Below, one piece after another: positions 4,348 through 22,724 of a DNA stretch of 64,000 bases. Made by a program: the position numbers and the translations under genes. The notes under the pieces are model-generated. The model was not told the DNA's origin. It ran no database searches and saw nothing but the letters and a program-made list of their open reading frames with translations. Origin of the DNA: an uncultured Bacteroidales bacterium (GTDB taxonomy: Bacteria > Bacteroidota > Bacteroidia > Bacteroidales > UBA11471); the NCBI GenBank assembly GCA_947625885.1, contig CANQQA010000008.1, positions 12,492-76,491 on the forward strand, given 5' to 3'. Every line of letters starts with the position of its first letter. The stretch's first letter is position 1.

Positions 4348-6658
4348 TGTTGTATTTCTTCCTTTCTTCTTTTGCCAGCCGGATTATCTCCGAACCCTTA
4401 TCCAGCACAGCTCTTACGGCATTGCCTATTGCTTTGTCGTCAGGTGTGCCATTGTGATGAATCAGTTTATAAAGTTCCCTCAACGGTCTGTCGGCACGGA
4501 GTATCTCCCAAGAGCTGCGCAGGTGGTGTGTTAGGGCGTCCAGTTCCGGAAGGTCTTTCCGTTGTTCCGCATACCTGAGCGACTGCATTTCCTTTTCTGT
4601 TTCCGTTATCAATTTCTCCAGCATGACGGCTTCATTGCCGTAGGATAGCAGGGAGGTGAAACCCGGCTTTTCATTTTGTGCCGCATTCATGGCGCATTTA
4701 TTTGAAATCTCCATCAGTTCAGATATGGAGAACGGCTTGAACAGGCATTCTGTGAATCCATGTTCTATAAGTTCCTCTTTGCCGCAACTGCCCGAAGCGG
4801 TTGTCACGATTACCGGGATATCCCTTGAATTGCCAACGTTGGAAGTGCGCAACAGTTCCAGCAACTCGAAACCGTTTATATCCGGCATATTCAGATCCGT
4901 CAGAAGAAGGCTGTATTCCTTTTTTCGTATCAGTTCCATCAGCTCCGCAGCATTGGTGCAGGTATCGCAGTGTATCCCTTCCTGTGCATACATTTCTTTC
5001 AGCATCAGGAGCAGCACTTCGTCATTGTCGATGGCAACCACATCGTGGAATGTATGGTTATGATGAACCTGTGTTTGATTTATCCGTTCCGGTAGTTCCT
5101 CGGCTGTCTGCATGGGGATTTCCACCGTGAAACGGCTACCTTTGCCTTTATCGCTCTCCAGACGGATTGTGCCGCCGAGCATTGTCACAATACGCTGAAC
5201 AATGGAAAGACCTAATCCGAAGCCATCCTTTGCGGCAGCGTTTGACAGACGTTCAAACGCCCCGAATACCCGTTGCTGTTCCTCTTCGGTCATACCTGTA
5301 CCCGTATCTTCGACGATAAGTTTCAGCAGACCGTTATCATAATCTGCCCGCAAAGAAACACTGCCGTTCTCCGTGAACTTGATAGCGTTGGACAGCAGGT
5401 TGTTCCCGATTTGCAAGATGCGTTCCTTATCTGTACATACAAAGGCATCCTTGTGGCAATGTATTGTCAGAGTCAGTCCTTTGTTTATGGCGATTGGCAT
5501 AAACTCCGTTTCGAGCGTATGTGTGATTGCGGAAATCCTACATGCGGAGAAATTAGGCTGTTCCTTGCCGTTGTCCAGCCGGAAAAAATTCAGCAGGGTG
5601 TTCAGCATTTCACGCATGCGGTCAGAAGATTCCTGAATGTTTCGGATATACGTCCCGGTTTTATCCGTATTGCAGTCTTTCCGCATCAGTCCGGCATAAC
5701 CCGTTATTGCCGTCAGTGGTGTACGTAATTCATGGGTAATGGTATGAACGGCTTTCTTGCGAGAGGCTATCAGTGCCTCGTTTCGCTTTGCCATTTGTTG
5801 CAGTCGCTCAATTAAATCTGCGGTTTCCTGTTTATATCGCTTGATGCGGTTGGCATTTCGGTGTATGATGATATATGATATGACCAGTAGCAGTATAACG
5901 AACCCTGTCAAGCCCCCAATCTGAATGAACGACCGTTCCCGCATGGCTGTTATCTCGGCTTCCCGCTTTTGTAGGTCAGTTTGTACTTTCCCGTCTATTT
6001 GAACAACCAGTCCTTGCAGTTGCCTGTTAAGTTCCGCATTTCGTGCGGCAAGGCTATCGGCATGAACCGATAAGCGACGGCTTTGCGCCTGTTGTTCGGT
6101 TCTCATATTCCGGTTAAAGGAACGGTGCATCGTGGTAGTCACAGTTGGTTTCGCTTCTTCCTTTTTGCCGAAGATGCCCAAGAATCCTTTTCGTTTAGGT
6201 TTCTTGGGTTGTTCTTGCACACTTTTCTGCGCGATTACGGGTACTTGACGGGGTATCTTATCGTTGATGGCTTGTTGCTGTTCAAGTATCTGCACGATTT
6301 GGCACATCTGCCGTTCCTTATCTTCGAGAAGATGGCGTACGCTGTCTATACGCTCTGCCGGATAGGTAGCTTTGAAACGGCAGAGCATACTGTCCATTGC
6401 CATACGCTGTGCATGGTAATGTTCGATATCTTTATCGTTCCATTCCAGTATTGTTTCACCAAATAGAGAGAATTTTATCATTTGAATATTGATATTGTTT
6501 ATCTCTTTTCGGAACTCGTCTATTTTTTTATTGTCAAGTTCTAATGCTTCTATCTCCTGCCATTCATAGAAGCTATTATATGCTATACATCCGATAAGAA
6601 CGGAGATAAGTATATACCCCAACCGTATTGTCTTATAGAAATTCCTGGATCGTTCCAT
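4340..6658 (-). CDS. rteA: Hybrid sensor histidine kinase RteA
   Basis: TM segments; H-box HELRTPLTAI; HATPase (DTGTGM, GFGLGLSIV); C-terminal receiver (LLLTDLNMPDINGFE) and an HPt-like tail. Its start shares 1 nt with the tetQ stop. Confidence 0.85.
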   Translation of the reverse strand: MERSRNFYKTIRLGYILISVLIGCIAYNSFYEWQEIEALELDNKKIDEFRKEINNINIQMIKFSLFGETILEWNDKDIEHYHAQRMAMDSMLCRFKATYPAERIDSVRHLLEDKERQMCQIVQILEQQQAINDKIPRQVPVIAQKSVQEQPKKPKRKGFLGIFGKKEEAKPTVTTTMHRSFNRNMRTEQQAQSRRLSVHADSLAARNAELNRQLQGLVVQIDGKVQTDLQKREAEITAMRERSFIQIGGLTGFVILLLVISYIIIHRNANRIKRYKQETADLIERLQQMAKRNEALIASRKKAVHTITHELRTPLTAITGYAGLMRKDCNTDKTGTYIRNIQESSDRMREMLNTLLNFFRLDNGKEQPNFSACRISAITHTLETEFMPIAINKGLTLTIHCHKDAFVCTDKERILQIGNNLLSNAIKFTENGSVSLRADYDNGLLKLIVEDTGTGMTEEEQQRVFGAFERLSNAAAKDGFGLGLSIVQRIVTMLGGTIRLESDKGKGSRFTVEIPMQTAEELPERINQTQVHHNHTFHDVVAIDNDEVLLLMLKEMYAQEGIHCDTCTNAAELMELIRKKEYSLLLTDLNMPDINGFELLELLRTSNVGNSRDIPVIVTTASGSCGKEELIEHGFTECLFKPFSISELMEISNKCAMNAAQNEKPGFTSLLSYGNEAVMLEKLITETEKEMQSLRYAEQRKDLPELDALTHHLRSSWEILRADRPLRELYKLIHHNGTPDDKAIGNAVRAVLDKGSEIIRLAKEERKKYNNG

Positions 6659-8583
6659 TATTTTGATGATACTGATTTTTCAAACATGAATAAAAGTTTA
6701 TCCTTTTCTTCCATACGGGTATTATCAGAATAACCGCCTTTTGTTATTTGATACCCACACGGCTTAACCATAAAAGTGCCTAAGCCTTTAGTGTATGAAC
6801 TTACTTCTGAGGCATAGTCTTTACTTGTATTTAATGGAACTTTCCCTTCAATAAGACACCACTCATTATTACAACTGATACCTTTAATCTCAGACATCAT
6901 TTTTTGCAGATCTGTAATAGCTTTGGAACTTGCTACTTGTGGTATCTGTAACTCAAAATAGAGCATCGGTTCGAGAATATCCACTCCTGATTGTTGCAAA
7001 GCCAACCTGAAGACATAAGGAGACAATTGTCTAAAATCGGCAGGGGTACTTATCGGACTATAATAAAGGGCATAAGTAAAGGTTACTTTCAAATCCGTCA
7101 CTTCCCATCCATGCAATCCCGATTGGCAAGACATACGGATTCCTTCAAAAACGGCATTTTGAAAAGAATGGTTCAGATAACCAAAGGAGATTTCACTTTC
7201 GATTTGCAACCCTGACCCTATCGGTAAAGGTTCAAGAGTCAGTCCTATGGAGGCCCAGTAAGGGTTGGGAGGGACTTCGATATGGATAATCTTATTCACC
7301 TTCTTTTTAGGTCGTTCTTTGTAGATAGTCTTGATTTCATCAAAATGGGCCTTTACGGAGAATCGTTCTTCCAGCAATGTTTGTATGATTTCTTTTTGGG
7401 TTAAACCATATAACGAGATTTCCAATTCATCACTATATGAATTTATGGAAAAGGACAGAGACGGGTCTTCAATAAACAATACATTTAGAGCGGATATCAA
7501 CTTGCTTCTCTCTTCGGGCTTGTCTGGTCGGACAGAAGATTTGAGGGCGGGATGCTGATGAGATAATCCTTGAATCAGACAAGGTTTAACACCTAAATAA
7601 TCTCCGATTCTTAATTCTTCTATATCTTCTATAATTGCGATATCATTAGCAACCACTTCATCAACATTTATCTCTTTGCCCTGATAAATGGTTTTTAGAT
7701 TTTTAATCTTGATGAATTTTTCAGAATCATTGACTTTTATAACGGTTCGAAGTCTCAGCCTTCCGTCAATAATTTTTAGAAAACTTCTTTTATGCCCTTT
7801 GGGGTCATGTTCTATTTTATAAAGATAAGCTGAAAGTCTATTGGGGACTGATGCCGGAGGAAATATAAAAGAAATGATGGCGTCTAACAACTCATTGATG
7901 CCAATATTGCACATTGCTGATCCATGCAAGACCGGATAGGCTTTGGCTTTTGCCACAAGAGCGATTATCGCATTCCAATAATCTGCCGGTAAGATTTCTT
8001 TATCCGCCAAATATAGTTCTAATATATCGTCGTCATGGTTGCATACAAATTCTTTGTGTTCTGCCCTTATATCTGTTGGGGTGCAAATCGGGTAAACGAC
8101 TCCATCGACAACCGTTTGCATAAACAAGACGTCTTGCGACAGATTTGTTTTTATGTCCAGATATAAACGCTCAAGATTTACGCCGGCACGATCAATCTTA
8201 TTGATAAATATAATTGTCGGGATTTGCAGTTTTTGCAAAGTCTTGAACAGCAACTTTGTTTGTGCTTGTATGCCTTCCTTTGCCGATAATATGAGGACTG
8301 CACCATCAAGCATTTTGAATGTCCGCTCCACCTCTGCAATAAAATCCATGTGTCCCGGAGTGTCAATGATATTGCATTTCACACCATTCCAAACAATAGA
8401 TGTCGTAGAAGCCCGAATAGTAATTCCTCTACGTTTTTCTATATCCATAGAGTCTGTTATGGTGTCACCTTTATCAACACTGCCGCGCTTTTCCGTTGCT
8501 CCGCAGGCAAATAGCAGATTTTCGGTTACGGAAGTTTTTCCTGCATCAATGTGAGCAAGAATTCCTAAATTTATAATGTTCAT
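6658..8583 (-). CDS. tetQ: Tetracycline ribosomal protection protein Tet(Q)-type
   Basis: Start trimmed to [18 protein letters not shown] (ATG at 8583-8581). EF-G-like GTPase motifs [17 protein letters not shown]. Collinear with Tet(Q) as I remember it, ending ...[15 protein letters not shown]. Confidence 0.93.
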
Positions 8584-8740
8584 TTGATTAAGCAATAATA
8601 TACTACAATAGATGCATTGCCGAAACGCACCTTTTAATACCTCCTCGTAGCATGTAGAAAACTACAGGATTCTTAACTCGTATTAATATGTATATTATTA
8701 CTGCCGCATAATTGAACGCAAATTTACGAAAAAAAAGTTC
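8584..8740 (-). promoter_or_regulatory. tetQ operon leader/promoter region (translational-attenuation region in CTnDOT)
   Basis: AT-rich untranslated region directly upstream of tetQ. Contains the mini-ORF ATG-CAT-CTA-TTG-TAG (8617-8603) 19 nt before the tetQ ATG. The function is assigned by analogy to CTnDOT only. Confidence 0.45.
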
Positions 8741-8849: not shown

Positions 8850-9707
8850 TTAAATTTTTCTGACCATTTCAAACTGTTGTCCTTTTGGGGTAAGTCCTAA
8901 TGATGACAAGAAACCAGTGACTGATTCACAATCGCAATCAACATTAGTAAATTTGAGTACATCGCTTTGAAAATGACTGACAGCACTTTTAAGCAAAGAC
9001 TTGCCTATTCCTTTACGCCGGTAATCTTTTGCAACTGCGAGGGATGAAATATCGCCAGATGCCGGTTCAAAGATAACAAATCCGACAAGTTCTTCTCTTT
9101 CATAAGCTCCCAATATGTCCAAATTGTCGATTCCGCGTTCCAGTGAAGCCCTGTCATTTTGCCATGAAGGATGAAAATCGAACCAGGCCGTTTGGTTAAG
9201 GCAGTTTTTTAAATCCGATGGGAGTATGCGACATGCGGTATGGTTTACTTGCAATACAGGAACAATATCGCTCAGTTTGGCAGAGTAGTAGTTGAAATTT
9301 CTCTGTGTTTCAAAGCCTAATTTGCGATATATTTTTATTGCTTTGTGATTGTGTTGCAAAACTTCCAGTACATATTGCCGAACTCCTTGTTGACATATCA
9401 ATTCGAGGCTGAAAGTGAATATTTTTTGGGTTAGGTGTAATCCCCGGAATGAAGGTACGGTTCCCGTCCCTGTGTCATAGGCAGTCAAGATGTTGTTGTA
9501 CATGCCTGTTCCGTTAAGCACAAAAGAAATCAGCCGTCCTTCGAAAAATACTCCGAAAGATAGTTGTGGATTGTATCCTCGTCGGTCGAGCATGCGTCGC
9601 AATTCATCCGCATTCAAAGAGAAATCATAATCTTTGAATGCAGATGAGAATGCCGCATACAAATCTTTGAAAGAAACGGACTCTAAAGAATGAATGATGA
9701 TTCCCAT
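8850..9707 (-). CDS. GNAT-family N-acetyltransferase, apparently two tandem GNAT-like halves
   Basis: 285 aa. The C-terminal half has the acetyl-CoA motif RRKGIGKSLL; the N-terminal half has ...VLEVLQHNHKAIKIYRKLGF. Confidence 0.7.
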   Translation of the reverse strand: MGIIIHSLESVSFKDLYAAFSSAFKDYDFSLNADELRRMLDRRGYNPQLSFGVFFEGRLISFVLNGTGMYNNILTAYDTGTGTVPSFRGLHLTQKIFTFSLELICQQGVRQYVLEVLQHNHKAIKIYRKLGFETQRNFNYYSAKLSDIVPVLQVNHTACRILPSDLKNCLNQTAWFDFHPSWQNDRASLERGIDNLDILGAYEREELVGFVIFEPASGDISSLAVAKDYRRKGIGKSLLKSAVSHFQSDVLKFTNVDCDCESVTGFLSSLGLTPKGQQFEMVRKI

Positions 9708-9718
9708 ATCGGACGGTG

Positions 9719-10096
9719 TTATGTGTTTGGATTTTCATCACTATTCTCTACGGGTAAACCGTGCTGTTTGAGAAAGCTGAGCTTATCCCAATAACCTCTT
9801 TGGAAAACTATTTTATCGTTTTGCACATGAAAGAATCCGCATCCTCGCAACCCGAGCGGATCTTTCCATTCCATGATAGCCCATTCTCCATCCTCGAATA
9901 TATGCTCAACAATACAAACCATTTTTGAGGTTGCAAATTCATTTACAAACATTTCATGGATAGCTGTTTTTCCTATAACTGGGGTGTTTGCGACTTGATG
10001 GTTTATGGCATCCTGAGCGTATAAGTTTGCCAAAGCGACTGCATCGGCGGCGTTGAAGCAGTCAATCCATTTTTGTAGTATCTCTTTTGGCGTCAT
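9719..10096 (-). CDS. SnoaL-like / NTF2-fold (ketosteroid isomerase-like) protein
   Basis: 125 aa; N-terminus ...WIDCFNAADAVALANLYAQDAINHQV is typical of SnoaL_2-type proteins. Confidence 0.65.
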   Translation of the reverse strand: MTPKEILQKWIDCFNAADAVALANLYAQDAINHQVANTPVIGKTAIHEMFVNEFATSKMVCIVEHIFEDGEWAIMEWKDPLGLRGCGFFHVQNDKIVFQRGYWDKLSFLKQHGLPVENSDENPNT

Positions 10097-10680: not shown

Positions 10681-12825
10681 TTAAATTTTTATCCCTTTCG
10701 ATCGGTTTTTATTCTTTAACTGAAAACCCGGTCGTCCGATGATGACATGGTCGCCAATGATGTTGCCCGTTGGATTTCGCTCATTCACCGGGCTGCGTAT
10801 CTGCGGTGCATCATCAGTTTGTTGTGGCGATATGCTCCGTACACCTTCCGAAACAGGCTTGACCTCCTGTCCATCCTTTTCTTTTTCGTCGGCTTCCTGC
10901 GTAGGCGGCGCAAGTTCCAGCTGTATCTTTCGGTCAAGTGCGGCAAGTTCGGACTTAAGCTGTTTCAGTTCGTCCTCCTTTTTCCATACCTTGCCCGCTA
11001 TCTCCTGCAACTGCGGAACTTCCTTTTCCAGCACCTCGTTCTTTCCCTTGTACTGGTCGATTATGGACGGAATCCGCTCCAATGCGTTCAGGAAATTACG
11101 TGCGGCGGCTACCGAATCAGCCATCGCCAGATGCCCGTTGTTGTAGGTGTACTTGTAGTTTCCCTCCACCACGAAGCGGTTATCGGTAAACTCCAGCCCC
11201 TCTTTGAGTATCCTCTCGCTTACCACCTTTATCGGAAAGCCGTAAAGTTCCCCGACAGGCTTGTACAGCCCGCCCGTAGTGGCGTTCTTGGCTATCTCCT
11301 GCAAACGCTTTCCGATAACCTTTTCATCGGTAGAATCCACGCCGTCCACCTTGACCGCATTCAGGCGGTTGCCCTCCTTGTCCGTCTGCACAACGGAAAG
11401 AAAGCGGTTCCAATCTTCCGTCATGGCTTCGATGACAGCCGTGTTGTTACGCAGTTCCCCCGTCTTGGCTTCCAGCTTGAACTCCGAATCGCGCTTGCCC
11501 TTGTTGAACGACTTGCGTTCCCCTTCAAGCGATGCGATACGCTTCTCCAGTTTCGCCTTGTCCAAAAGGTCGGTATTGCCGGAGAGCAACGCCATGTACT
11601 CCGAGAAATTCATGCCCGATTTCTCGTCCATCGCCCCCTCGTCGATGGTACGCGCGCCCATCGCCCCGCTTTTAAGCTGCGAGATGAACGTCTGCTTGCA
11701 GTGCAGCAGGTTGAACTTGTAGCTGTCCAGCGACTTTTCCACCGCGTAGATGATGACATCCACATTGTTCCCGGCAAAATGCTTGGCAATCTCGTTGCCT
11801 GCCCTGACTCCCCGTCCGTCACGCTGTTGCAGGTCGGACGGTCGCCAAGGCGTATCCAAATGATGGATGGCGACACACCTTTTTTGCGCATTCACGCCCG
11901 TTCCGAGCATGGAGGTGGAACCGAACAGCACGCGCACCGTTCCGGCGTTCATGGCGTCTATCACCGCCTTGCGCGCCTTGTCGGTCTTGCACTCCTGAAT
12001 GAAGCGCACCTCGCTTGCCGGTATGCCGTAGTCCTCCGTCAGCTTCCGCTTTATCTCACTGTACACGTTCCACCCGTCGCCCGGCTGGTACGTCCCCAGA
12101 TCCGAGAACACGAACTGCGTGCCTTTCTGCGCGTCGTATTTATGGTAATACTCCGCAATCGTCTTGGCACAGTGGGAAGCCTTGTTGTCGGGGTGGTCTT
12201 CGTAGTTCGGGTCTATCATGCGCATATCGAGAGCCATCTTCCGTGCGTAATCGGTGGCGATCAGCATCTTTGCCTTCTCTTCCGTTTCCGACAGGGGCGG
12301 TCTACCGAGCAGCGTGGCGTCGCCCGTCTTGGCGAACTGCATCAGTTTTTGAATGAAGTCCTCCTGCTCCGGCGTGGGCGGTATATGGTGCAGTATCTCG
12401 TTCTTGTGCGGACGATCCACACCCACATCCTCTGCCGTGCGGTAGTCGGTTATCTCGTTGTAGAAGGCGGCAAGCTCCGGCACTTTGATGAAGTAGCGGA
12501 AACGCTCCTTCTGCACCACGTTGTTCGTCACGTTGAACTCGAAATCGGTCGTCTTCTTGGCGAAGATAGCCGCCCATGCGTCAAAGCACCGGATATCCTG
12601 CCGTTCCAGTTCCTTCGGGCGCAGGTACTTGAAGAGCAGGTACAGTTCCGTCAGCGAGTTGCTGATGGTCGTGCCGGATAGGAACGTCGCCCCCAAGTCC
12701 TTACCCGTGCGCTCTTGTATGGTGCGGATGGCAAAAAGCATATTCAGGGCTTTCTGGCTTCCTTCCGAGTTGCCCAAACCAGCCACACGGTCATGCCGCG
12801 TGTTGAAAGTCAAGTTCTTAAATTG
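10681..12825 (-). pseudogene. C-terminal half (helicase C-terminal domain onward) of the split CTn methylase-helicase, bmhA-like
   Basis: The frame resumes [19 protein letters not shown]... immediately outside the inserted element. Helicase motifs [13 protein letters not shown]-like ([11 protein letters not shown]), ...GTGVNAQ, ...QRDGRGVR. The name bmhA is recalled from CTn341 literature and should be verified. Confidence 0.85.
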
Positions 12826-12859
12826 ATGGCTCAAATCCAAAATTTCGGATTTGAGCCAT
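12826..12859. repeat. lox-like 13-8-13 site: ATGGCTCAAATCC-AAAATTTC-GGATTTGAGCCAT
   Basis: Perfect 13-bp inverted arms with an 8-bp spacer, read directly from the sequence at the left junction of the RIT element. Confidence 0.85.
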
Positions 12860-12884
12860 TATCAGAACTTTTATGAGTTTCCTA
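12857..12884. repeat. Left terminal inverted repeat of the RIT element
   Basis: CATTATCAGAACTTTTATGAGTTTCCTA equals the reverse complement of 16306-16333 at 27/28 positions. Confidence 0.9.
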
Positions 12885-12985
12885 TTAAATCACTCAATTA
12901 TTTAGTAATCATTTGTTTTGATCTGTAAACAGTTCTGATTATATTCCGTCATAATTGTAGAATAACTTTTAAACAAGATGCGATT

Positions 12986-14197
12986 ATGGACATATTTAAT
13001 CTGAATGAAAAAGTCGAGGGGCTTGTTTCTTATTTACAAGAAACCGGTTATTCAGCCATGTACATAGGCTATGTGAAGAAAATGGCTGAGTGGCTATCGG
13101 AAAATACTAACCATTATAAATGGCAGAGTTTCTCCGACGTTGAACCGACATTAAAAGAATTGTGGTCCAACAAGTATACCTACAGGAACAAGGTACGCCT
13201 GTTGCGTGTAATCTGCCAATATATTGAGAATGGATTATTACCCGATGGTTGCAAACACTACAGCAAGCCTCACCACTATGAGTTGCTCGGCGCAGAATAC
13301 AAGGATGTAACGGACATGGCTTTCAACATGGTAGACAGACGTTGCAAATTTTCAATAAATGTGAAGTATGCGCTATCTTCGTTCTTCTTCCGGCTACAGG
13401 AAATGGGAGTGTACTCATTCGAATCAATAACAGAAGATGCGGTATTGGAAGTGTTTTCCAAAGACGGAAAACCGAAAATGGGCCATTCGCTCAAATATTC
13501 GGTGGAATATGGGCTGAAAGCCTGTTTGCCTCACTATGGCAAATCCGTTGAACGTATAATCGCATACCTGCCGTCCATACCCAATATGCGGAAAAACATT
13601 CAATACCTTACGGAGCAAGAACTGACTGCTATCAGGCATACTTTAGAACACGATAGCACAATATCTCTACAGGACAAAGCCATCATAACCTTGGCCATGT
13701 ACACGGGATTGCGTGGATGTGACATCTCTGCACTCACGCTTGACAGCTTCGATTGGGAACACGACCTGATAAAAATCACTCAGGCAAAGACGGGACAGCC
13801 CCTGACATTGCCACTTCGTGCCGTGGTAGGAAACGCTGTATTTGATTACCTGCTCAAAGAACGTCCCCGAAGCCCGGAACCATATGTTTTTCTCACAGTA
13901 CAGGTGCCATACAGAAGGCTTCATACAAGCAATCTCGATGCTATATGCTCAAAAGTCATGTGCAAAGCAGGAATAAGACAAGGTGAAAATGAGAGAAAGA
14001 GTCTGCATCTGTTCCGCCACAATGTGGCAACGGCCCTGTTGCAGGGCGGTGTGCAGCAACCTGTCATAAGTGCCACCCTCGGCCATGCGTCCCCGGATTC
14101 TCTCGACCGCTACCTTAGTGCGGAATTCAAGAGGCTGAAGGAATGTTCATTGAGCATAGAATACTTTCCCGTAGGAAAGGGGGTGTTTGACGTATGA
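12986..14197 (+). CDS. Tyrosine recombinase, first of trio (RitA position)
   Basis: 403 aa; C-terminal catalytic region LHLFRHNVATALLQGG...LGHASPDSLDRYL. Confidence 0.85.
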   Translation: MDIFNLNEKVEGLVSYLQETGYSAMYIGYVKKMAEWLSENTNHYKWQSFSDVEPTLKELWSNKYTYRNKVRLLRVICQYIENGLLPDGCKHYSKPHHYELLGAEYKDVTDMAFNMVDRRCKFSINVKYALSSFFFRLQEMGVYSFESITEDAVLEVFSKDGKPKMGHSLKYSVEYGLKACLPHYGKSVERIIAYLPSIPNMRKNIQYLTEQELTAIRHTLEHDSTISLQDKAIITLAMYTGLRGCDISALTLDSFDWEHDLIKITQAKTGQPLTLPLRAVVGNAVFDYLLKERPRSPEPYVFLTVQVPYRRLHTSNLDAICSKVMCKAGIRQGENERKSLHLFRHNVATALLQGGVQQPVISATLGHASPDSLDRYLSAEFKRLKECSLSIEYFPVGKGVFDV

Positions 14198-15150
14198 AAA
14201 CTATTTCATTCCTATCCAACGCTATAGAAGGGTATGTAAAATACCGCAAGGCTTCCGGGCGTAACAGCCATAGCTATGTCAAGAACGTAATATTGTTCGA
14301 TCATTTTTGCGCAAGGGAATATCCGGGACAAACTGAGCTTACCCAAGAAATCGTGGACAGATGGTGCAGGCAACGTCCGACTGAATGCACAAACTCCTGC
14401 GTGTCACGTGTCTATCCTGTCTTGGACTTCATCAAGTACATGAACAAGCGTGGAATGACGAAAATTGACTTGCCGCAAGTGCCAAGGTCTGTGCCGAGGA
14501 CTTATACGCCGCATCCTTTTACACACGATGAATTGAAACGCTTCTTTGACGCTTGCGACAACATAAAGCCAAGGCGTGGCAGACTCGCGGCCATCCAGCG
14601 CATGACACTGCCGGTGTTCTTCCGTTTACTGTACAGTTCAGGAATAAGGACAACCGAAGCCATCCTGCTGGAATGCGATGACGTAAACCTTGAAAATGGC
14701 GTGGTATCCATCAAACGTGGCAAAGGGTATGACCAGCATTATGTAGTCCTCCATGACACAATGTTGCCCCTGATGCGTACTTATGACGGAAAAATAGATG
14801 GGCTGATTCCGAACCGCAGGGTGTTTTTCCCGACACCGGATGACAAGCCGCACCCTCCTGTATGGGTAACGTACCACTTCAGGGTGCTGTGGCAAAGCTG
14901 CAATTCATCCCGCGCAATCCCATACGAACTAAGGCACAACTACGCCATAGAGAACATAAACAGCTGGACACACCAAGGATTTGCCGTACATGACAAATTG
15001 CTGGCTCTAAGCAAGAGTATGGGGCACAGGCAAATAGAAAGTACATTGGCTTACTACTCTTTGACTCCGGCGATTTCGGACATAATGGCGTGTACCGACA
15101 ATGAAATCAGCCAACAATTAACGCAAGACGATTATGAAAAAGAAGATTAA
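14194..15150 (+). CDS. Tyrosine recombinase, second of trio (RitB position)
   Basis: 318 aa; ATGA overlap with the upstream ORF; SSGIRTTEAILL..., ELRHNYAIENI..., MGHRQIESTLAYY. Confidence 0.85.
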   Translation: MKTISFLSNAIEGYVKYRKASGRNSHSYVKNVILFDHFCAREYPGQTELTQEIVDRWCRQRPTECTNSCVSRVYPVLDFIKYMNKRGMTKIDLPQVPRSVPRTYTPHPFTHDELKRFFDACDNIKPRRGRLAAIQRMTLPVFFRLLYSSGIRTTEAILLECDDVNLENGVVSIKRGKGYDQHYVVLHDTMLPLMRTYDGKIDGLIPNRRVFFPTPDDKPHPPVWVTYHFRVLWQSCNSSRAIPYELRHNYAIENINSWTHQGFAVHDKLLALSKSMGHRQIESTLAYYSLTPAISDIMACTDNEISQQLTQDDYEKED

Positions 15151-16183
15151 CCCACAGGCCATGCAGATTGCCGCGTGCCTGCATGACTGGCTTGAACACC
15201 ATGTGCCTTCCATCAAGGCGTGCAGCCGACATACCCTAAGAAACTACCATGTTTCCATGACGCTTTATGCAGAGTTCCTCAGAACGGTAAAAGGCATAAC
15301 GCCCGAAACGTTGAATGCTGATTGCTTTTGCAAGAAAAACATTGAGGAGTGGATTGTTTGGATGAAAAAAGTCCGTAACTGTAGCCCGGCAACCTGCAAT
15401 GTGAGATTGTCCGCCTTGCGCGCTTTTCTGAAATACCTATCAGATAATGACATATCATTCGTTTCAGTGTTCCTGCAGGCGGAGAATGTGCCGAATGAAA
15501 AAACTCCAAAAAGGAAAGTGATCGGGCTCAGCAAGTTGGCTGTTGACACGCTTTTATCCATGCCAAACCAAAGAACCGCCATTGGTTTTCGTGATTACAC
15601 GCTTCTGCTTCTTCTGTATTCGACTGCCGTGCGCATCAATGAGCTTTTGACGCTGAAGATTTGCAATATTACCATGGACTGCGCAAAGCCTCACATAATT
15701 GTCATAGGAAAAGGACGAAAGAGACGCCCAATACCTCTTCTGGCAAAGCCTGTTCAATATTTGAAGAAATACCTTACCGAGTATCATCCTAATCCTGGCG
15801 ATGCTGAAGCATTACTCTTCAGTTCAAAAAGCAGAGGTATATACACGCCCATGTCTGCGGAAAATGTTAATAAAATGCTGAAAAGGTACGCAAAGATGGC
15901 GCATGGCAAATGCAGTGACGTTCCTTTGGACATACATGCGCATCAGTTCAGGCACGCCAAAGCATCCCATTGGCTTGAAAACGGCATGAACATTGCCCAA
16001 ATCTCTTATTTGCTTGGGCATGAGAATATCCAAACGACAATGGTATATCTTGACATAACTACCGAACAAGAGGAAAAAGCATTGGAAACGCTTGAGGATG
16101 AAAACCAGAGGTGCGTTGGTAAGAAATGGAAATCGGCAAAAGGTAAAATGGAACTTGAGGTTTTCTTGGGTTTGCATAAATGA
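15134..16183 (+). CDS. Tyrosine recombinase, third of trio (RitC position)
   Basis: 349 aa; 17-nt overlap with the upstream ORF; STAVRINELLTL..., HAHQFRHAKASHWLENG..., LGHENIQTTMVYL. Confidence 0.85.
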   Translation: MKKKINPQAMQIAACLHDWLEHHVPSIKACSRHTLRNYHVSMTLYAEFLRTVKGITPETLNADCFCKKNIEEWIVWMKKVRNCSPATCNVRLSALRAFLKYLSDNDISFVSVFLQAENVPNEKTPKRKVIGLSKLAVDTLLSMPNQRTAIGFRDYTLLLLLYSTAVRINELLTLKICNITMDCAKPHIIVIGKGRKRRPIPLLAKPVQYLKKYLTEYHPNPGDAEALLFSSKSRGIYTPMSAENVNKMLKRYAKMAHGKCSDVPLDIHAHQFRHAKASHWLENGMNIAQISYLLGHENIQTTMVYLDITTEQEEKALETLEDENQRCVGKKWKSAKGKMELEVFLGLHK

Positions 16184-16305
16184 CGAATGTGGGGTATTGT
16201 GCTTGTAATAAGTACAATGCCTCATTTCATAACAACTCACTCAATAAATAATCCGAACTATATTAAAATGCAACAAAATAAGAATCAGCAACTTGATGCG
16301 AAATT

Positions 16306-16333
16306 TAGGAAATTCATAAAAGTTCTGATAATG
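16306..16333. repeat. Right terminal inverted repeat of the RIT element
   Basis: TAGGAAATTCATAAAAGTTCTGATAATG; pairs with 12857-12884. Confidence 0.9.
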
Positions 16334-19300
16334 CGATTCGTCAATAAAAATATGGTCGATGCCCATCTGCTTGAAGTCCACCACGTCGTCCGTGCGCGAC
16401 TTGATGGCGTGTTCCACCTTCTCCAGCTTCGCTTCAAGGTTGTGCTTGCGCTTTTCCAGACCTTTCAGCATCGCCCTCGATACGTTCTTGCCCTGCTGCC
16501 GCAAGACTTCGAGGTTTTCCTCCACCGTGTCAAGCTCCGCTTGCAGGATGCGCTGCTGCAACTCCGGCGACTGCGGAATCTTGCCGAACTGGTCGTGCGA
16601 CATGATGACGCAATCATAGTCGTTGTTCTTGATGTTGTTGAAGAAACGCACGCGGTTGGCGGTCGAAAAGTCCTTCTCCGAGGCATAGAGAATCCGCGCG
16701 TTCGGGTATGCCGCCTGATAGGTGGCGGCAATCTCCGCGACATTGGCTTTCAGCCCGATAATCATCGGTTTGTGCGCCAAGTTCAGACGCTTCATCTCAT
16801 GCGCTGCAATGCACATTATCAGCGTCTTGCCTGTACCGACTTCGTGGTCGCAGATGCCACCGCCGTTCTGTTTGAGCATCCAGACGCAATCCATCTGCGA
16901 CGGATAGACGCTCTTGATACCCCTGCTTGCCAGCCCTTTGAGGTTGAGGTCCGGAAAGGTCTGGTGTGAGCCGTCATATTTCGGGCGCACGAAACAGTTG
17001 AACTTGCGGTTGTACATCGTCGTCAGCCGTTCCTTGAACTGCGGCGACTGCTCTTCCAGCCATTCCGAGAACCCGTTACGGATTTCGTCAATCTTGGCGT
17101 TGGCGAGCTGTATGCCCTCGCTGTCGCGTACCTTGATGTCGTTTCCGTGTTCATCCTTTCCTATGGACTTCATCATATCCGGGCAGGTGTTATGCAGGGC
17201 GTGTTTCAACAGGTGCATGCCGTCATAGTTCCGGTAATAGCCCTTCACTAAAAACTCGTCCGTGATTTTCATGGTGCGGTAGCCGCACGCCACCGAAAAT
17301 TCGTCCATGCTTGCGGAGTAGGCGATTTTCACGTCCGTGTCAAAAAGACGGCTCATGTAGGCGGCATATACGCCCGTCGGAATCCAGCGTTCCCCGAAAT
17401 TGAAGTCGAGGTCTTCAAAAGCGATGCGCGGCGGCTCGGCTTCTTTCAGAGCCTCCAACGCCTGCTTCACTTCCGGCATACGCCCGTTTTCGGGGTTGTC
17501 GCCCATCCATGCCTCGATGCGTTCCGCCTTCTCTATCACGTTCCCGGCGATGAACCTGTCCTTTATCTCGTAACCGGTTACGAGCGGGTTGTAGAAGATG
17601 CGTCCTTTGAGGGCGTCAAGCAATCCCTCCTCCGTACTGTCGGTTATCTCCCGCATATAGTCGAGATTGACCGTGCCGAACTTGTTGAGCGATGCGGAGA
17701 GTGCCTCTTCGGGAGAGCTTACGTTGGCATGGCTCTCTACCGAGAAGGAAACGGGACGCTCGAAAATGTCCGCCTTGACGAACCTGCCGTCCTCCGCACG
17801 TTCCAGCGAAAGGATGTCGCGTCCTCCTGCATCCATCACCACCAGTTTCACGTTCTGCTTGGCGTTGAGGTTGCCGTAGCGCATGACAAACTCGTCATAG
17901 CAGGTGTTCAGATGCTCACGCCACTGCGGGTTTTCCTCGCGCCTGTTCGATTCATAACGGTACAGACGCTCGTATGCGTCACGGAGCGACACATACAGCA
18001 ACGCCTTCTCTTTCTGATAGCCTGTCAGTCCAAGCGGCTGGAATGTCGCGCCGTAAGGCGTGATGTCTTTCAGATAACCGATGTTACGACGCCCACTGTC
18101 AGCCACTAACGAGCCTTCACGCAAGTGCATTTCCGGCGTGCGGTGGTAGGGACGCGGCGACAGGTCGGGAGCTTCCTCTTTCGGTTTTTCCGCTTCCATT
18201 TCGGGAAAAAGGGAGGTTGCAGCCGCTTCCGTTGCGGGAGCGACAGGAATGGCGGCAACTTCCGGCTGTGTTTCGGGTTGCCGTGTTTCCTGCTCCGGCG
18301 CGGCTTTCACGTCCGGGACATGCTGCCGTTTCTCCTGATGCTGTGCCGCCAGCCTGCGAAGTTCCTTGCGTCGCTCCGGCGTGAGGTCCATCATCATTTC
18401 ATAGAAGCCGTTGATGGGCGGATTGGTGTCCCAATCCAAAGTAGCGTAAATATCATCCGGATCGGCTTTGGCTGCGACACTCACCGGCTTTGTTTCATGG
18501 CTGTCCCTGCTTTCCGTCGGCGGTGCGGCAGACGGCTGTGGCGGTGCGGTCGTAACCTTCGGCGTAACCTGCGCCTGCGGTTTGGGAGGCATGCGCCTTG
18601 CCGGGCTTTCCTTTTTCGCCGTCTTTTTCTTCTTGGCGGGTGCTTCCTGCTTGCGTACTTCCTCCGTCATGCCCCAGAGGTCGAGCAGGGAGAGCTGCAC
18701 GCCCTCCGAATAATCGGGGCGGCGCGGCTCTATCTCCGACTTTTCTTCCTCCGGCTGCGGTGTTGCCGCTTCGGGCTTCACTGCCATTTCATGACGTGGC
18801 TGTATCTCAGGAGTGACAACCGGTGTGGAAATGGTTTCTGTCACCGTGCTTTTCCCCTGTGCCGGATGCAGGCTGTGCATTTCATACAGCTTTTTGTCCA
18901 ACTTATACAGCTCAATATCCATATGTTCCCGCAAATCCTCCGCCATTTGCTCGATGCCGTCCCGGTGCATGACTTTATAGGCTGGTTTCCCGTAAGGGTC
19001 TGTGCCGCTTATCAGATCCGAGTGGGGAATCATGCCGATGCTGCCGACATACCCGTTCTGGAAACTACCTATCGGTGTCTTTTCCGTCTGCACGAACAAC
19101 TCTTCATAATCGTACAGCTCCCGTTTCTTGCCGCTGTTCTTTTGCAGGATAATCAGGTCGCTACCCACTTCCGTACCCGCGTTGTCCGTGAAGAGGTTGT
19201 TCGGCAGGCGTGCGACTCCCACCAGATTGGCATTACGCATCATATACTCGCGTATGGGCGCGTTGGACGGTGCGTCCAGTACCCCTTGAGAGGTGATGAA

Positions 19301-20029
19301 CGCCACGATGCCGCCCTCACGCACCGCGTCAAGGCTTTTCAGGAAGAAGTAGTTGTGTATTGCCTTCGGTGCGGAACGCCTTGCCGGGTCTTGGCTGCCC
19401 GTGAACTCCGGGTCGAACACAGCCACGTCGCCGAACGGGATGTTCGAGATAGCAAGGTCGAAATAGTCCGTGAATGGCTTCTCTATCTTCTCGAATCCCT
19501 GCACCCTTACCTTTTGGTCTGGATGCAGGTATCCCAATATTTTGCCCGTCATCAGGTCTTTCTCGAAAGCCATGATATCCGCGTCCGGCTTGTTTTCCAG
19601 CACGGCATCCACGAATGCGCCCACGCCCGCCGACGGCTCCAATACGCGATCGGGACGTATGCCGTGTTCATGCAGTACATCCGCGATAGTGCCGGTTATC
19701 TCCGGCGGGGTGTAGAAAGCGGTCAGCACGGACTGCTTCATGGCATCCACGTACCGCTTGTACTCCGTATCGTCCTTGCTGTTTTCACGCACCAGCCTGT
19801 GCAGCTCCACCGTAGGGGCAAACAGTTCGAGGTCCGATTTCGCCCAATGCACGGCATCCGTCAGTTCCTTTGCCGGGTTCAGTATGCACTTCAATCCGCC
19901 GAAACCGCAATACTTCCGAAGTATGGCTTGTTCCTCGGCGGTTGCCGTCCTCCGTTCCCTGTCAAGGATGAATGCCGTCCGTATCGCCTCGATGTTGTCC
20001 CGCAGCCGTTGTTTGCGGTTAAACGCCAT
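16331..20029 (-). pseudogene. N-terminal 1233 codons of the split CTn methylase-helicase, bmhA-like (N6-adenine methyltransferase plus helicase N-terminal domain)
   Basis: The authentic frame ends ...GIDHIFIDESH, then runs 29 junk codons into the inserted element. Contains a methylase-like region (LEPSAGVGAF, ...SNIPFG), a Pro/Glu-rich linker and helicase motif I (HEVGTGKT). Confidence 0.85.
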
Positions 20030-20471
20030 ACTCGTCGATATAAAGGACGGCGGCTCCCGTCAGCTCCGTGTAGAGCAGGTCGTATTCGGGCGACAGGGCG
20101 AAGTTGTCGTCCGAAAGGTCATAGGCGGAGAATACATTACCGACAGGCGGCAGCAGCTTTCGGATGAAGGCTTCGCGTTTCTTTTCCGGCACTTCGTTGG
20201 CAAACTCGTTTTCCACGACTTCGCGGAGGATGGCGTACTTGGAATAGCGAAGCCCCCGCAGGAGCGTGTCCATCGCCAACTCCTGCGCCCCTTCGGGCGG
20301 ATAGCCTTCGAGCCGCACACGCTCATACGTTTCGGCGGCACGGTCGGCACGCTCCCGGATGAAGGCATCATCGGAAGCCTGTTCAAACCTGTTCGTGCGG
20401 AGGTAGTCCAGCAGGTACAGACCGTAATAGGAAAAGTCGGTCTGACCCTCGTTTTTCTTCTTGTTGTTCAT
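20019..20471 (-). CDS. DUF1896 domain protein (conserved CTn gene upstream of the methylase-helicase)
   Basis: Start trimmed to MNNKKKNEGQTDFSYYGLYLLDYL (ATG at 20471-20469); 11-nt overlap with the downstream gene start. Confidence 0.65.
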   Translation of the reverse strand: MNNKKKNEGQTDFSYYGLYLLDYLRTNRFEQASDDAFIRERADRAAETYERVRLEGYPPEGAQELAMDTLLRGLRYSKYAILREVVENEFANEVPEKKREAFIRKLLPPVGNVFSAYDLSDDNFALSPEYDLLYTELTGAAVLYIDEYGV

Positions 20472-20633
20472 TACTTTGGATTTAGCGGATTGATAATTAA
20501 CGGGATAATCGGTTGGAAAAAGGAAGAAAAAGGCACTCGGTATCCCTCCGAGTGCCACCACTAAATCCAAAGTATGAGTGTAATCCGGTATCGAAGAACA
20601 ATTCATTACTCTGAACCAGTGGCAAAGGTAATA

Positions 20634-22724
20634 CTATTTCTTCCGTCCTGAAAATTTCCTGCTCGTTTTCCTTTCGGGGAACACGAAAGTCGTGTTATAG
20701 TCCCCGTCAAAGGCGACTATGGCATCAAAGCTCTTGCCCTGTTTGCTTTTGAAGCCTTTGAGCAGCTTCGTATGCCCGTCGGTGAGCAGCTCTTTGATCT
20801 CGTCGTCGGAAAGGGTGCGGTTCGCCTTCAGGCGGAACACGGGCAGCCCGCACTCCGCGTTGTCGCAGCGTACCACCTTGCCGTAGAACTGCATGCTGCC
20901 CGTCCCGCACTTGGGACACTTGCAGCCGGAATCCCTGCGGGAGAACAGTTTGTCGCACGAGAGCAGTTCGGAGGTGATTTCACGTGTGTACGCCTCTATC
21001 TCCCTGCGGAAGGTGTCAGCGGGCAGTTCCCCGCGCTCGATGCGTGCCAGATTCTTCTCCCATTCGCCCGTCATGGCTACGTCGGCGATGCGCATCGTCT
21101 TCACGACCGAGTAGAGGGCAAGCCCTTTTTCTGTCGGCACAAGCGATTTCTTGCAGCGTTCCATGTAGCCGCGTTTGAAGAGCGTTTCGATAATCGCCGC
21201 ACGGGTGGCGGGCGTGCCGATGCCGCAGTCCTTCAACGCCTGACGCAATGCGTCGTCCTCTATGTCCTTGCCCGCCGTTTCCATTGCCGACAACAGTGTC
21301 GCTTCGGTATGCAGCGGTTTGGGTTTGGTCTTGCCCTCCGTGATGGAGCAGCCTTTCAGCGTCAGCGTGTCGCCTTCCCGCCAATCGGGGATGGCGGTTT
21401 CTTCCTTGTCCTCCCCGCCATAGACGGCACGCCATCCGGCTTGCCTGATGATGCTGCCTTTCACCGTGAACTCCACTCCGGCACATTCCGCCGTGACGGT
21501 GGCGGTGTCCTTGACGCATTTCTCGGAGAAAGCCTCAATCATGCGCCCGGCAACCATCTGATAAATGGTGCTGTCCTCTTTGGAGAGGAACAGCGGCTTC
21601 TCGCCAGTGACGAGCAGGGCGTGGTGGTCCGTCACCTTGCCGCCGTCCACACTGCGGCGTGTCGGCTGCGCTTTCGGCTGCACCTTGCCTTTCCATTCGG
21701 GCAAAGCCCCGATGAAGGCGAGCAGCTTGGGGATTTCAGCGAACATGTCTTCGGGTATGTAGCGGCTTCCGGTTCGCGGATAGGTGATGAGCTTCTTCTC
21801 ATAGAGCTTCTGCGCGATTTCAAGCGTCTGTTCCGCCGTGAAGCCGTGCTTGGCGTTGGCTTCCTTCTGGAGCGTCGTCAGGTCGTACAGGAGCGGTGTT
21901 TCCTCCGTCTTCTCCTTGCGTTCGGCTTTCGTGACGGTGGCTGTGCCTGCCGACTTCACCTTATCATACAGTTCCGTCGCAGGCTCTTTCTCTTTCCACT
22001 TTTCGGAAGAGGAAAACTTCACTGTTCCTTCGTCGCAGCCGTCCGTTGCGATATGGAGCTGCCAAAAGGCTTCGGGTGTGAAGCGGCGGTTCTCCCAATA
22101 GCGTGCGCACACCATTGCCAATGTAGGTGTCTGCACCCGTCCGATGGAATATGTGCCGTGTCCGGCGGCGATGGAGAGTGCCTGCGTGCCGTTGATGCCC
22201 ACGAGCCAGTCTGATTCGCTCCGCGCTTTGGCGGCAAGATAGAGATTGTCGTATTTGCCGCCCGCTTCGAGGTTGCGCAGCCCCTCGCGGATAGCCTTGT
22301 CGGTAAGCGAGCTTATCCAAAGGCGCACAAACGGGGTGGTGCATCCGATATAATGGTAGAGGTATCGGAAGATAAGCTCACCCTCACGCCCTGCATCGGT
22401 CGCCACGATGATTTGTTCGCTCCTGTTGAACAGGGTGGCGATAACCTTTATCTGCGCCGCCACACCGCTGTCAGGCTTGTAACCCTTCTCCGTCTTGGTC
22501 TGGCGGGGGACGAGCGTGAAGGTGTCGGGGATGACGGGCAGGTTGTCACGGACGAAGCCGCGTATGCCGTAGCCGTCGGGCATGGCAAGCTGCACGAGGT
22601 GTCCGAACGCCCATGTCACGGCGTAGCCGCCTCCCTCGAAATATCCTTCCTCTCTCTTTGTCGCGCCCACGATACGGGCGATCTCACGTGCCACAGACGG
22701 CTTTTCTGCAATGATTGTCTTCAT
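20634..22724 (-). CDS. exc: Type IA DNA topoisomerase III; occupies the exc position of the CTnDOT excision operon
   Basis: Toprim N-terminus MKTIIAEKPSVAREIA; ...ATDAGREGELIF; active-site region ITYPRTGSRY; C-terminal zinc-ribbon CPKCGTG...C..AEC. Confidence 0.9.
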   Translation of the reverse strand: MKTIIAEKPSVAREIARIVGATKREEGYFEGGGYAVTWAFGHLVQLAMPDGYGIRGFVRDNLPVIPDTFTLVPRQTKTEKGYKPDSGVAAQIKVIATLFNRSEQIIVATDAGREGELIFRYLYHYIGCTTPFVRLWISSLTDKAIREGLRNLEAGGKYDNLYLAAKARSESDWLVGINGTQALSIAAGHGTYSIGRVQTPTLAMVCARYWENRRFTPEAFWQLHIATDGCDEGTVKFSSSEKWKEKEPATELYDKVKSAGTATVTKAERKEKTEETPLLYDLTTLQKEANAKHGFTAEQTLEIAQKLYEKKLITYPRTGSRYIPEDMFAEIPKLLAFIGALPEWKGKVQPKAQPTRRSVDGGKVTDHHALLVTGEKPLFLSKEDSTIYQMVAGRMIEAFSEKCVKDTATVTAECAGVEFTVKGSIIRQAGWRAVYGGEDKEETAIPDWREGDTLTLKGCSITEGKTKPKPLHTEATLLSAMETAGKDIEDDALRQALKDCGIGTPATRAAIIETLFKRGYMERCKKSLVPTEKGLALYSVVKTMRIADVAMTGEWEKNLARIERGELPADTFRREIEAYTREITSELLSCDKLFSRRDSGCKCPKCGTGSMQFYGKVVRCDNAECGLPVFRLKANRTLSDDEIKELLTDGHTKLLKGFKSKQGKSFDAIVAFDGDYNTTFVFPERKTSRKFSGRKK

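Follow-up and report, generated by a model that had tools for sequence, protein, structure and literature searches.

Recombinase in trio (RIT) elements are widespread and are defined by three adjacent, overlapping tyrosine-recombinase genes of three distinct families, RitA, RitB and RitC, bounded by inverted repeats. Their archetype is Rmet_1271-1273 of Cupriavidus metallidurans CH34 (Van Houdt 2009/2012), palindromic ends have been noted for the Sphingobium RITs, and the target specificity, empty site and mode of movement of the class are tabulated as 'not tested' in a 2023 review (PMC10214605). Here we analyse an element of this type in a stretch of 64,000 nucleotides from an uncultured Bacteroidales bacterium (the window; contig CANQQA010000008.1 of assembly GCA_947625885.1), where it splits a methylase-helicase gene, called BmhA in the nomenclature of the conjugative transposon CTn341. 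That it is a RIT-type insertion into bmhA we regard as virtually certain. The account as a whole, of a RIT-family element of gut Bacteroidales that targets helicase motif II and uses a permuted palindromic joint with base exchange, we consider probable, with good confidence.

The element resembles the described RITs in its three adjacent same-strand genes of about 400, 315 and 340 aa, in A-B-C order and with short overlaps, as well as in its terminal inverted repeats, its lack of other genes and its multiple identical copies. It differs from the known RITs in its Bacteroidales host, in a RitB with Tyr for the first His of HxxR, and in the 3-4 kb of defence cargo found in some relatives; unlike in the RIT descriptions, natural copies here let one read the exact target, the empty sites, the permuted joint and the junction bases that are exchanged. 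Our literature searches returned no Bacteroidales RIT, helicase-motif target or permuted palindrome, their coverage stopping short of Ricker et al. 2013, which may describe some of the architecture. The element belongs to a known class, as a variant in which the natural copies lay open the choice of target and a likely mechanism.

Other site-specific elements offer partial parallels. CTnDOT (with its integrase IntDOT) and Tn916/Tn1549 recombine with non-homologous coupling sequences and have a circular intermediate. As these systems are generally understood, the likeness to our element would lie in this form of intermediate and in a short invariant homology (here CA) beside variable bases that are exchanged and carried on. 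Tn916 and CTnDOT differ in having one integrase and an excisionase, asymmetric ends with arm sites and no two-site palindromic joint, whereas the window element has three simple Xer-like recombinases and no Xis-like gene. Tn554 and the SEs copy flank bases from the donor site into the new site (PMC10214605); together with GInt they share with our element several tyrosine recombinases side by side, a site-specific target and, probably, the copying of flank bases. They need, however, a fourth, non-recombinase protein (TnpC; Tfp and Srap; GinC/GinD), of which there is none between the repeats here, and they are not bounded by long inverted repeats that carry a terminal palindrome. Insertion in the DNA of an invariant catalytic motif, at a site conserved across divergent hosts, is also known from group II introns, inteins and homing endonucleases; unlike with these, nothing is spliced here and the gene is broken, and the chemistry is tyrosine-recombinase recombination, not retrohoming or break repair.

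The recombinase trio and the gene that it splits

The element occupies 12829-16333 (3505 bp) and consists of the terminal palindrome (28 nt) and a stretch of 3477 bp that the two repeats delimit. Its parts and the two gene halves around it are, in window positions:

10681..12825, minus strand: C-terminal (downstream) half of the methylase-helicase gene (BmhA type), from the in-silico fusion and homologs
12826..12828, minus strand: His codon of the target's DESH motif, CAT as read on the gene strand, with which the downstream gene half begins; holds the invariant CA at the crossover
12829..12856, no strand assigned: terminal palindrome (hairpin) GCTC AAATCC AAAATTTC GGATTT GAGC, the outer 4 nt of each arm being the exchangeable 'coupling' tetranucleotides
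12857..12884, plus strand: left terminal inverted repeat (IR-L) CATTATCAGAACTTTTATGAGTTTCCTA, 27/28 with the right one; outer 16 nt kept across subfamilies
12928..12942, minus strand: subterminal inverted copy of the repeat core, ATAATCAGAACTGTT, including ATCAGAAC at 12932-12939; confined to the ritA side and a candidate for an additional recombinase-binding site
12986..14197, plus strand: ritA-type tyrosine recombinase, 403 aa (PF00589, E 1.6e-24)
14194..15150, plus strand: ritB-type tyrosine recombinase, 318 aa (PF00589, E 9.8e-15); ATGA overlap with ritA
15134..16183, plus strand: ritC-type tyrosine recombinase, 349 aa, Xer-like (PF00589, E 2e-31); 17-nt overlap with ritB
16306..16333, minus strand: right terminal inverted repeat (IR-R), whose terminal ATG (CAT on the gene strand) is the element's
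16334..20029, minus strand: N-terminal (upstream) half of the methylase-helicase gene (BmhA type), ending ...GIDHIFIDES, with an N6_Mtase domain and homologs

The upstream minus-strand open reading frame (ORF) reads ...GIDHIFIDESH and continues into the element. The flanks are, as had been proposed from the letters alone in a first-pass annotation, two halves of one frame: deletion of 12826-16330 (or equivalently 12829-16333; 3505 bp) gives a minus-strand ORF of 1947 aa. A query of 520 aa across this in-silico junction found 1761 proteins at E <= 1e-30, several of them aligned over the whole query (100%) with identities of up to 98%, e.g., 'DNA methylase, partial [Bacteroides uniformis]', and the motif DE[SR]H-x[FY]KN is uninterrupted in 118 of the 120 best homologs of the fused protein. 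Compared with an uninterrupted allele (L223; comparative loci are given here by such L numbers), the fused flanks yield one high-scoring segment pair (HSP) of 1204 nt at 89.4% identity, and at the site this empty allele reads GAC GAG AGC CAC CAA TTC AAG AAC. Intact homologs are collinear across the junction, and from the contiguous homologs and the single HSP with the empty allele it follows that the insertion disrupts a conserved gene, one that combines an N6-methylase domain with new-style helicase domains.

The three same-strand recombinase ORFs, their 4-nt (ATGA) and 17-nt overlaps and their catalytic tails are all as first annotated. All three proteins match PF00589, which is the phage-integrase catalytic domain of Pfam; no NCBIfam model matched them at its curated cut-off, the best partial matches being Xer-type recombinases. 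In an all-against-all protein comparison with the trios of Dinoroseobacter shibae pDSHI03, Priestia megaterium and Bacteroides ovatus, the same-position scores against D. shibae were 76-89 bits for ORF1 (RitA type), 57-60 bits for ORF2 (RitB type) and 102-106 bits for ORF3 (RitC type), versus 0-54 bits across positions, and the same-position preference was found again with the Priestia and B. ovatus trios. The D. shibae RitA proteins are entered as RIT(A) in Table S2 of Van Houdt et al. 2012, and the full-length relatives retrieved by tblastn from plasmids were in every case the first genes of trios. The RIT identity claimed at the outset is borne out by the adjacent overlapping trio, the bounding repeats and the same-position best matches to a literature-listed RIT trio, and the position-specific scores separate the three proteins into three distinct Rit-like subfamilies.

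RitA residues R243, K268, H341, R344, H367 and Y376 are invariant in 48 homologs, as are H270, R273, H296 and Y305 of RitC in 47 sequences. RitB keeps R-H...Y, with Tyr replacing the first His of HxxR (YELRH) in the window's ORF2 and in the Bacteroides and Priestia lineages; D. shibae RitB retains that His. In its AlphaFold2 (AF2) model (predicted local distance difference test, pLDDT, 84) RitA has helical modules at residues 3-82 and 97-194 followed by a catalytic domain at 210-388 (domains assigned by inspection), and the best structural matches are XerA, XerH, IntI and Cre, the Xer/Cre/IntI alignment covering only some 300 of the 403 residues. Two sequential core-binding domains have been reported for the RitA of RITs (Smyshlyaev 2021), with which the two N-terminal helical modules of the model agree. 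RitC carries a conserved tail of 44 residues past its nucleophile Y305, with invariant E313, A316, T319, E321, E323, K330 and K333; the tail can be aligned with that of D. shibae RitC, and AF2 places a helix at 310-325, but with pLDDT < 50.

The 28-nt inverted repeats at 12857-12884 and 16306-16333, which match at 27/28 positions (96% complementary), are the longest inverted pair in the region and are kept in about 100 related copies. A check for their occurrence as a generic repeat found none: the terminal motif is present in the window only at the element ends, plus one chance-level match. Three of the window's four ATCAGAAC motifs lie within the element ends. Between the repeats there is no non-recombinase gene, the other ORFs being short and antisense (85-138 aa), and the lower GC content of the interior, already remarked upon, amounts to 0.34-0.50 in the element against 0.53-0.60 in the flanks. 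The palindrome had been overlooked in the first-pass annotation. It measures 34 nt (12826-12859; ATGGCTCAAATCCAAAA/TTTCGGATTTGAGCCAT), with a folding energy of -14.5 kcal/mol (z = -5.1), and the stretch of 31 nt that separates the left junction from the left repeat reads ATG-GCTCAAATCC-AAAATTTC-GGATTTGAGC-CAT. In an assembly collection, 432 index blocks contain the exact RitA protein, mostly on contigs of 2-5 kb; such short contigs are the signature of a collapsed repeat. Across different flanks the repeat-to-repeat length is constant at 3477 bp, and the multiple identical copies speak for mobility of the element as a unit.

Site-specific integration into the DNA for helicase motif II

About 100 related copies were compared, drawn from the ten best-flanked places, seven genome loci and at least some 120 metagenome stretches; most of the comparative loci are metagenome contigs. 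A scan of viral contigs with the 16-nt repeat terminus gave 83 matching stretches, all of them chance matches except L039, and therefore a pattern of 22 bases (AAAAGTTCTGATAATGnnnnAAATCC), which specifies repeat and palindrome and leaves the target unspecified, was used for the metagenome scan. The scan of a genome collection with RitA gave the seven loci, too few for a count of copies per genome, and the element DNA had no match among the PLSDB plasmids.

Read outward from the repeat terminus, the copies present one of two options. The first is a 'bare' junction, nnnn followed by TCATCGACAAAGATGTGGTCGATGCCCAT, the reverse complement of which encodes M-G-I-D-H-I-F-V-D-E-x. The second is the palindrome nnnn-AAATCC-RRAATTYY-GGATTT-nnnn followed by CAY-nnn-TTC-AAG-AAY-CTn (H-x-F-K-N-L). 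Distinct bare-side flanks end in D-E-x in 22 of 24 cases and in D-D-x in the other two, and 58 of 76 distinct hairpin-side flanks have [HQ]x[FLY]K[NT] in frame. The palindrome may stand at either end of the element, but it invariably adjoins the H-x-F-K-N half of the target, and it is invariably the bare repeat that meets D-E-x. Of the complete copies, with one end bare and a palindrome at the other, about 28 of 35 lie between concordant helicase halves, in at least five helicase subfamilies. Element subfamilies with RitA at about 92, 85, 69 and 60% identity have the terminal 16 nt, the palindrome and the target in common. The element is thus inserted site-specifically into the DNA for helicase motif II (D-E-S-H, followed by Q-F-K-N) of the bmhA-type gene, which it splits.

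One ancient insertion in an ancestor of bmhA, diverging with the gene and spread by conjugative transposons, might mimic such specificity by inheritance. Most copies do lie in one gene family that is itself horizontally mobile, and element subfamilies with RitA identities of 60-100% exist. Yet trios that are 100% identical occupy helicase alleles that differ from one another at many flank positions, and both layouts occur in one allele with different junction tetranucleotides (L002 vs L008). Intact alleles at 98% protein identity are common, moreover (the P0001 cluster has 382 members), and the element is also found in an SNF2-type helicase (DEA/QMLKN; L007, L009) and at a few non-helicase sites (L004, L140), so that we consider inheritance very improbable. 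These look-alike sites keep the DNA consensus GAYGAR-nnn-CAY-nnn-TTC-AAG-AAY (off-target locus L004 reads GACGAC GGT/CAG AGT TCG AAG AAC), from which we conclude that recognition is at the DNA level and at one exact phosphodiester position.

Two contigs of metagenome-assembled genomes labelled Faecalimonas and Oscillospiraceae (L012 and L013; 5.5 and 2.2 kb) carry a 92% element beside a Bacteroidales-type H-x-F-K-N flank. These Firmicutes-binned contigs are probably a mis-binned repeat rather than a case of cross-phylum spread.

Placement of the palindrome, junction bases and a proposed model of crossover

Within the family at >=98% identity the palindrome stands on the ritA side in 23 copies and on the ritC side in 20. 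It is not a feature of the target, since intact genes are without it and solo palindromes are absent: all 139 palindromes in 2.16 Mb of DNA touch a repeat terminus. Arm changes that preserve pairing occur (GCAT...ATGC in L003). That the palindrome is separable from the repeats and may lie on either side of the element could suggest an independent small repeat, or a target feature, beside which the trio inserts, as some insertion sequences target repetitive extragenic palindromic (REP) hairpins; a solo repeat terminus with palindrome and without recombinase genes (L114) points the same way. This explanation, to which we give next to no credence, has to contend with uninterrupted genes that read D-E-S-H-Q-F-K-N without a palindrome, with the 139 of 139 palindromes in contact with a repeat, with a palindrome that accompanies the element to unrelated targets, and with its position between both repeats in the joint of L125 described below. 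In L114 (4175-4235) some 20 nt of repeat terminus and the palindrome lie in a metallophosphatase-like ORF near an hsdR fragment, with no recombinase genes within 4 kb; a remnant left by a deletion and a non-autonomous derivative are both conceivable.

Relative to the genes, the asymmetric loop AAAATTCC points the same way in either layout (5 and 6 cases), and 0 copies have its reverse complement. Inversion of the gene segment between the repeats was accordingly rejected as the main cause of the two layouts; the constant loop orientation is as circular permutation predicts. Contig L125 has, in order, the element tail (99.5%), IR-R, the palindrome, IR-L and the element head (99.7%), in comparison with a 7.2-kb relative. 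In L177 (83-10833) a 3.5-kb and a 7.2-kb member of the family stand head to tail, joined via a palindrome, which looks like an element-to-element site-specific cointegrate.

A different route has been proposed for RITs. Nielsen et al. 2017 saw an enrichment of RIT DNA upon exonuclease treatment but no circle junctions, and proposed hairpin intermediates from terminal palindromes of 47-51 bp; the element would then move via a linear intermediate with covalently closed hairpin ends, by telomere-resolvase-like chemistry on the palindrome, and not via a circle. The palindrome is here perfect and stable, as this route would have it. A hairpin-ended linear form alone, however, does not account for a palindrome of the same orientation at either end, and it leaves the IR-R-palindrome-IR-L joint of L125 and the element-to-element joint of L177 unexplained; we therefore think it unlikely, though worth keeping in view.

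Seven of 42 copies have the palindrome at both ends. In five such loci (L007, L106, L113, L162 and L165) the flanks are the downstream halves of two different helicase genes. The reciprocal form, bare at both ends, was not found by a scan that needed a palindrome and so could not show one.

The bases at the junctions can be sorted into those of the element and those of the target. ATG at both junctions had been read in the first-pass annotation as either a 3-bp duplication or part of the ends. The second option stands for one of them: in 36 of 36 bare ends the repeat terminates in ATG, and the triplet past the palindrome follows the target allele (CAC 104, CAT 28, CAG 8, CAA 3), so that one of the two ATGs is a CAT belonging to the element and the other is the His codon of the target. 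The constant terminus and the allele's triplet rule out a target-site duplication, be it ATG (3 bp) or nnnnCAY (7 bp); bare and distal tetranucleotides are, moreover, unequal in most complete copies.

The four bases next to CA are found in three slots, at the bare junction and in the proximal and the distal arm of the palindrome. Each slot uses the same eight tetranucleotides (GAGC, ATGC, ATCG, GTCG, GAGT, ATCA, GTGC and ATGT), which correspond in every case to the target's final Glu-codon base followed by a codon for Ser or Cys. Up to five distal tetranucleotides are found with one 40-nt target allele, one bare-side allele has ATGC in L002 and GAGC in L008 with opposite element layouts, and the palindrome arms are often non-complementary in these four bases. 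The insertion might be viewed as a domesticated, reversible on/off switch of the methylase-helicase, with excision restoring D-E-S-H, and not as a selfish transposon: the commonest element-borne tetranucleotide, GAGC, would rebuild GA-G AGC CAY (E-S-H), and the empty allele L223 reads GAG AGC CAC. The off-target insertions in unrelated genes, the defence cargo of relatives and the other targets used by distant relatives speak against such a switch, for which we see very little likelihood.

The model that we prefer is one of site-specific crossover at a palindromic joint. Excision as a circle, or a head-to-tail joint, would unite IR-R, palindrome and IR-L in one palindrome of about 87 bp, with the predicted sequence ...CTGATAATG-nnnn-AAATCC-nnAATTnn-GGATTT-nnnn-CATTATCAG... 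This joint would hold two inverted (mirror-image) core sites GGATTT-nnnn-CA-T-TATCAGAAC, either of which could cross over with the target GAYGA-nnnn-CA-Y-nnnTTCAAGAAY to give the two layouts at about equal frequency. Strand exchange would span the four variable bases and the invariant CA, heterology being tolerated, and target and element would sometimes trade tetranucleotides, which would travel on to the next site in the manner of coupling sequences. The three recombinases presumably divide the half-sites (repeat arm, palindrome arm and target arms) among them. A conserved catalytic-motif target in a gene of a conjugative element would provide both a dependable site and a ride between species. 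We favour this joint and crossover model, which is built from natural sequences, with fair confidence.

Several observations weigh against it. The tetranucleotide at the bare junction is mostly that of the target allele, so that exchange could be rare or arise otherwise. The right arm of the target matches the repeat arm only with a 3-bp offset, and the half-site logic is hence not simple. Loop AAAATTTC occurs in both orientations (21 vs 10), by which some inversion or mixing of lineages exists. L125 could be a head-to-tail tandem instead of a circle, and it belongs to the 91% relative, not to the 3.5-kb form. The chimeric flank pairs and the two-palindrome copies may be assembly artefacts, or else products of recombination between copies, which for the two-palindrome form would be copies of opposite layout. 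Finally, copies free of a palindrome were invisible to the metagenome scan, which needed repeat plus palindrome.

Host transposon, relatives and cargo

The host was taken in the first-pass annotation for a conjugative transposon of the CTnDOT/CTn341 type, and the genes around the split gene confirm it, with a tetQ-rteA-rteB operon plus rteC and a bmhA/DUF1896/topoisomerase neighbourhood:

1502-2119: RteC
3025-4347: RteB
4340-6658: RteA
6658-8595: EF-G-like TetQ (TetQ-like GTPase)
20019-20606: DUF1896
20634-22724: topoisomerase

DUF4099/DUF3945 is likewise found near the split gene, and an order RteA...BmhA has been reported for CTn341. From about 28 kb on the genes are chromosomal (GH28, pheT, mgtE). 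No IntDOT-type integrase and no tra or mob genes were found among the window ORFs scanned; the rest of the transposon would lie to the left of the window. A GNAT acetyltransferase (8850-9707) and a SnoaL-like protein (9719-10096) separate the tetQ-like gene from the C-terminal bmhA half, and this stretch (8850-10096), which is low in GC (0.33-0.42), may represent cargo or a further insertion into the conjugative transposon. Other bmhA-type alleles harbour group II introns (L223:2996-4663 and L006:9968-11770, with RVT_N/RVT_1/GIIM and RVT_1/Intron_maturas2/HNH domains, respectively), and the bmhA-type gene appears to be a hotspot for selfish elements.

Several members of the subfamilies are 6-7.3 kb long. 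A relative of 7.2 kb (RitA 91%) is located at L101:2215-9486 and occurs also in L171, L124, L186 and L177 (3596-10833). Its cargo consists of three opposite-strand genes between ritC and IR-R, encoding two ThsB-like TIR proteins (173 and 198 aa) and a protein of 655 aa with TIR and SLOG (LD_cluster2) domains, by its domain content a Thoeris-like defence module inside a RIT element. Directly inside the repeat of L108 (5715-7556, minus strand) lies a gene for a PHP-like/ATPase protein of 613 aa that matches PDC-M49A, a candidate defence family of PADLOC, at E = 2e-219; the other end of the element is outside the locus.

More distant trios, with RitA at 50% and 41% identity, lie outside helicase genes; the 41% trio (metagenome locus L234) has repeats of 93 nt and a palindrome at one end only. 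Repeats and a one-sided palindrome also accompany a trio on the Priestia megaterium plasmid NZ_CP069608.1 (L220:3876-7349; RitA 37% identical), in which a GTTGAC core recurs, with the layout left flank-GTTGAC-IR...IR-GTCAAC-AAATCCAAAC/GTTTGGATTT-GTTGAC-right flank. The joined flanks encode an ArdC-like protein of 447 aa, and the insertion is within its HELTH zincin motif (HExxH codons). The same architecture is present in the trio of the B. ovatus plasmid NZ_CP041396.1 (L221), which is 29% identical and has repeats of its own (TTATCCAAACTTTTTAG...); its left-end palindrome CCATATTATC...GATAATATGG (L221:30-100) contains a near-copy of the repeat terminus of the window family (AAAAGTTCTGATAAT). 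Around the D. shibae RIT we found no convincing repeats or palindrome in a GC-rich background, and the adjoining DEAD/DEAH helicase ends normally, so that there is no insertion in its motif II; for the proteobacterial RITs this architecture is therefore not claimed.

Two cases, the DExH of BmhA in Bacteroidales and the HExxH of an ArdC-like protein on the Priestia plasmid, fit the idea that RITs in general home to motifs, moving through a joint whose palindrome, between the two terminal repeats, contains two mirror-image crossover sites, and aiming at the catalytic-motif DNA of anti-restriction or leading-region genes of conjugative elements. We put this forward tentatively, as a possibility on which we would not yet rely.

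For the annotation of Bacteroidales genomes, a split 'DNA methylase/helicase' with triple 'XerC/XerD' calls can now be read as one element. The approximately 100 natural insertions amount to a natural experiment, which defines the target consensus with base-pair precision, predicts a joint with two alternative crossover sites and offers evidence for the exchange of junction bases. They portray a parasite upon a parasite: the element homes to, and breaks, a gene of the conjugative transposons that spread tetQ among the gut Bacteroidales, and some of its lineages deliver Thoeris-like or other candidate defence genes. If true, motif-homing would assure these elements of a landing site that is conserved and of passage from one species to another, some lineages bringing anti-phage defence cargo with them; it would also explain for the first time, in mechanism and in ecology, a class of elements for which movement has gone untested since 2009.

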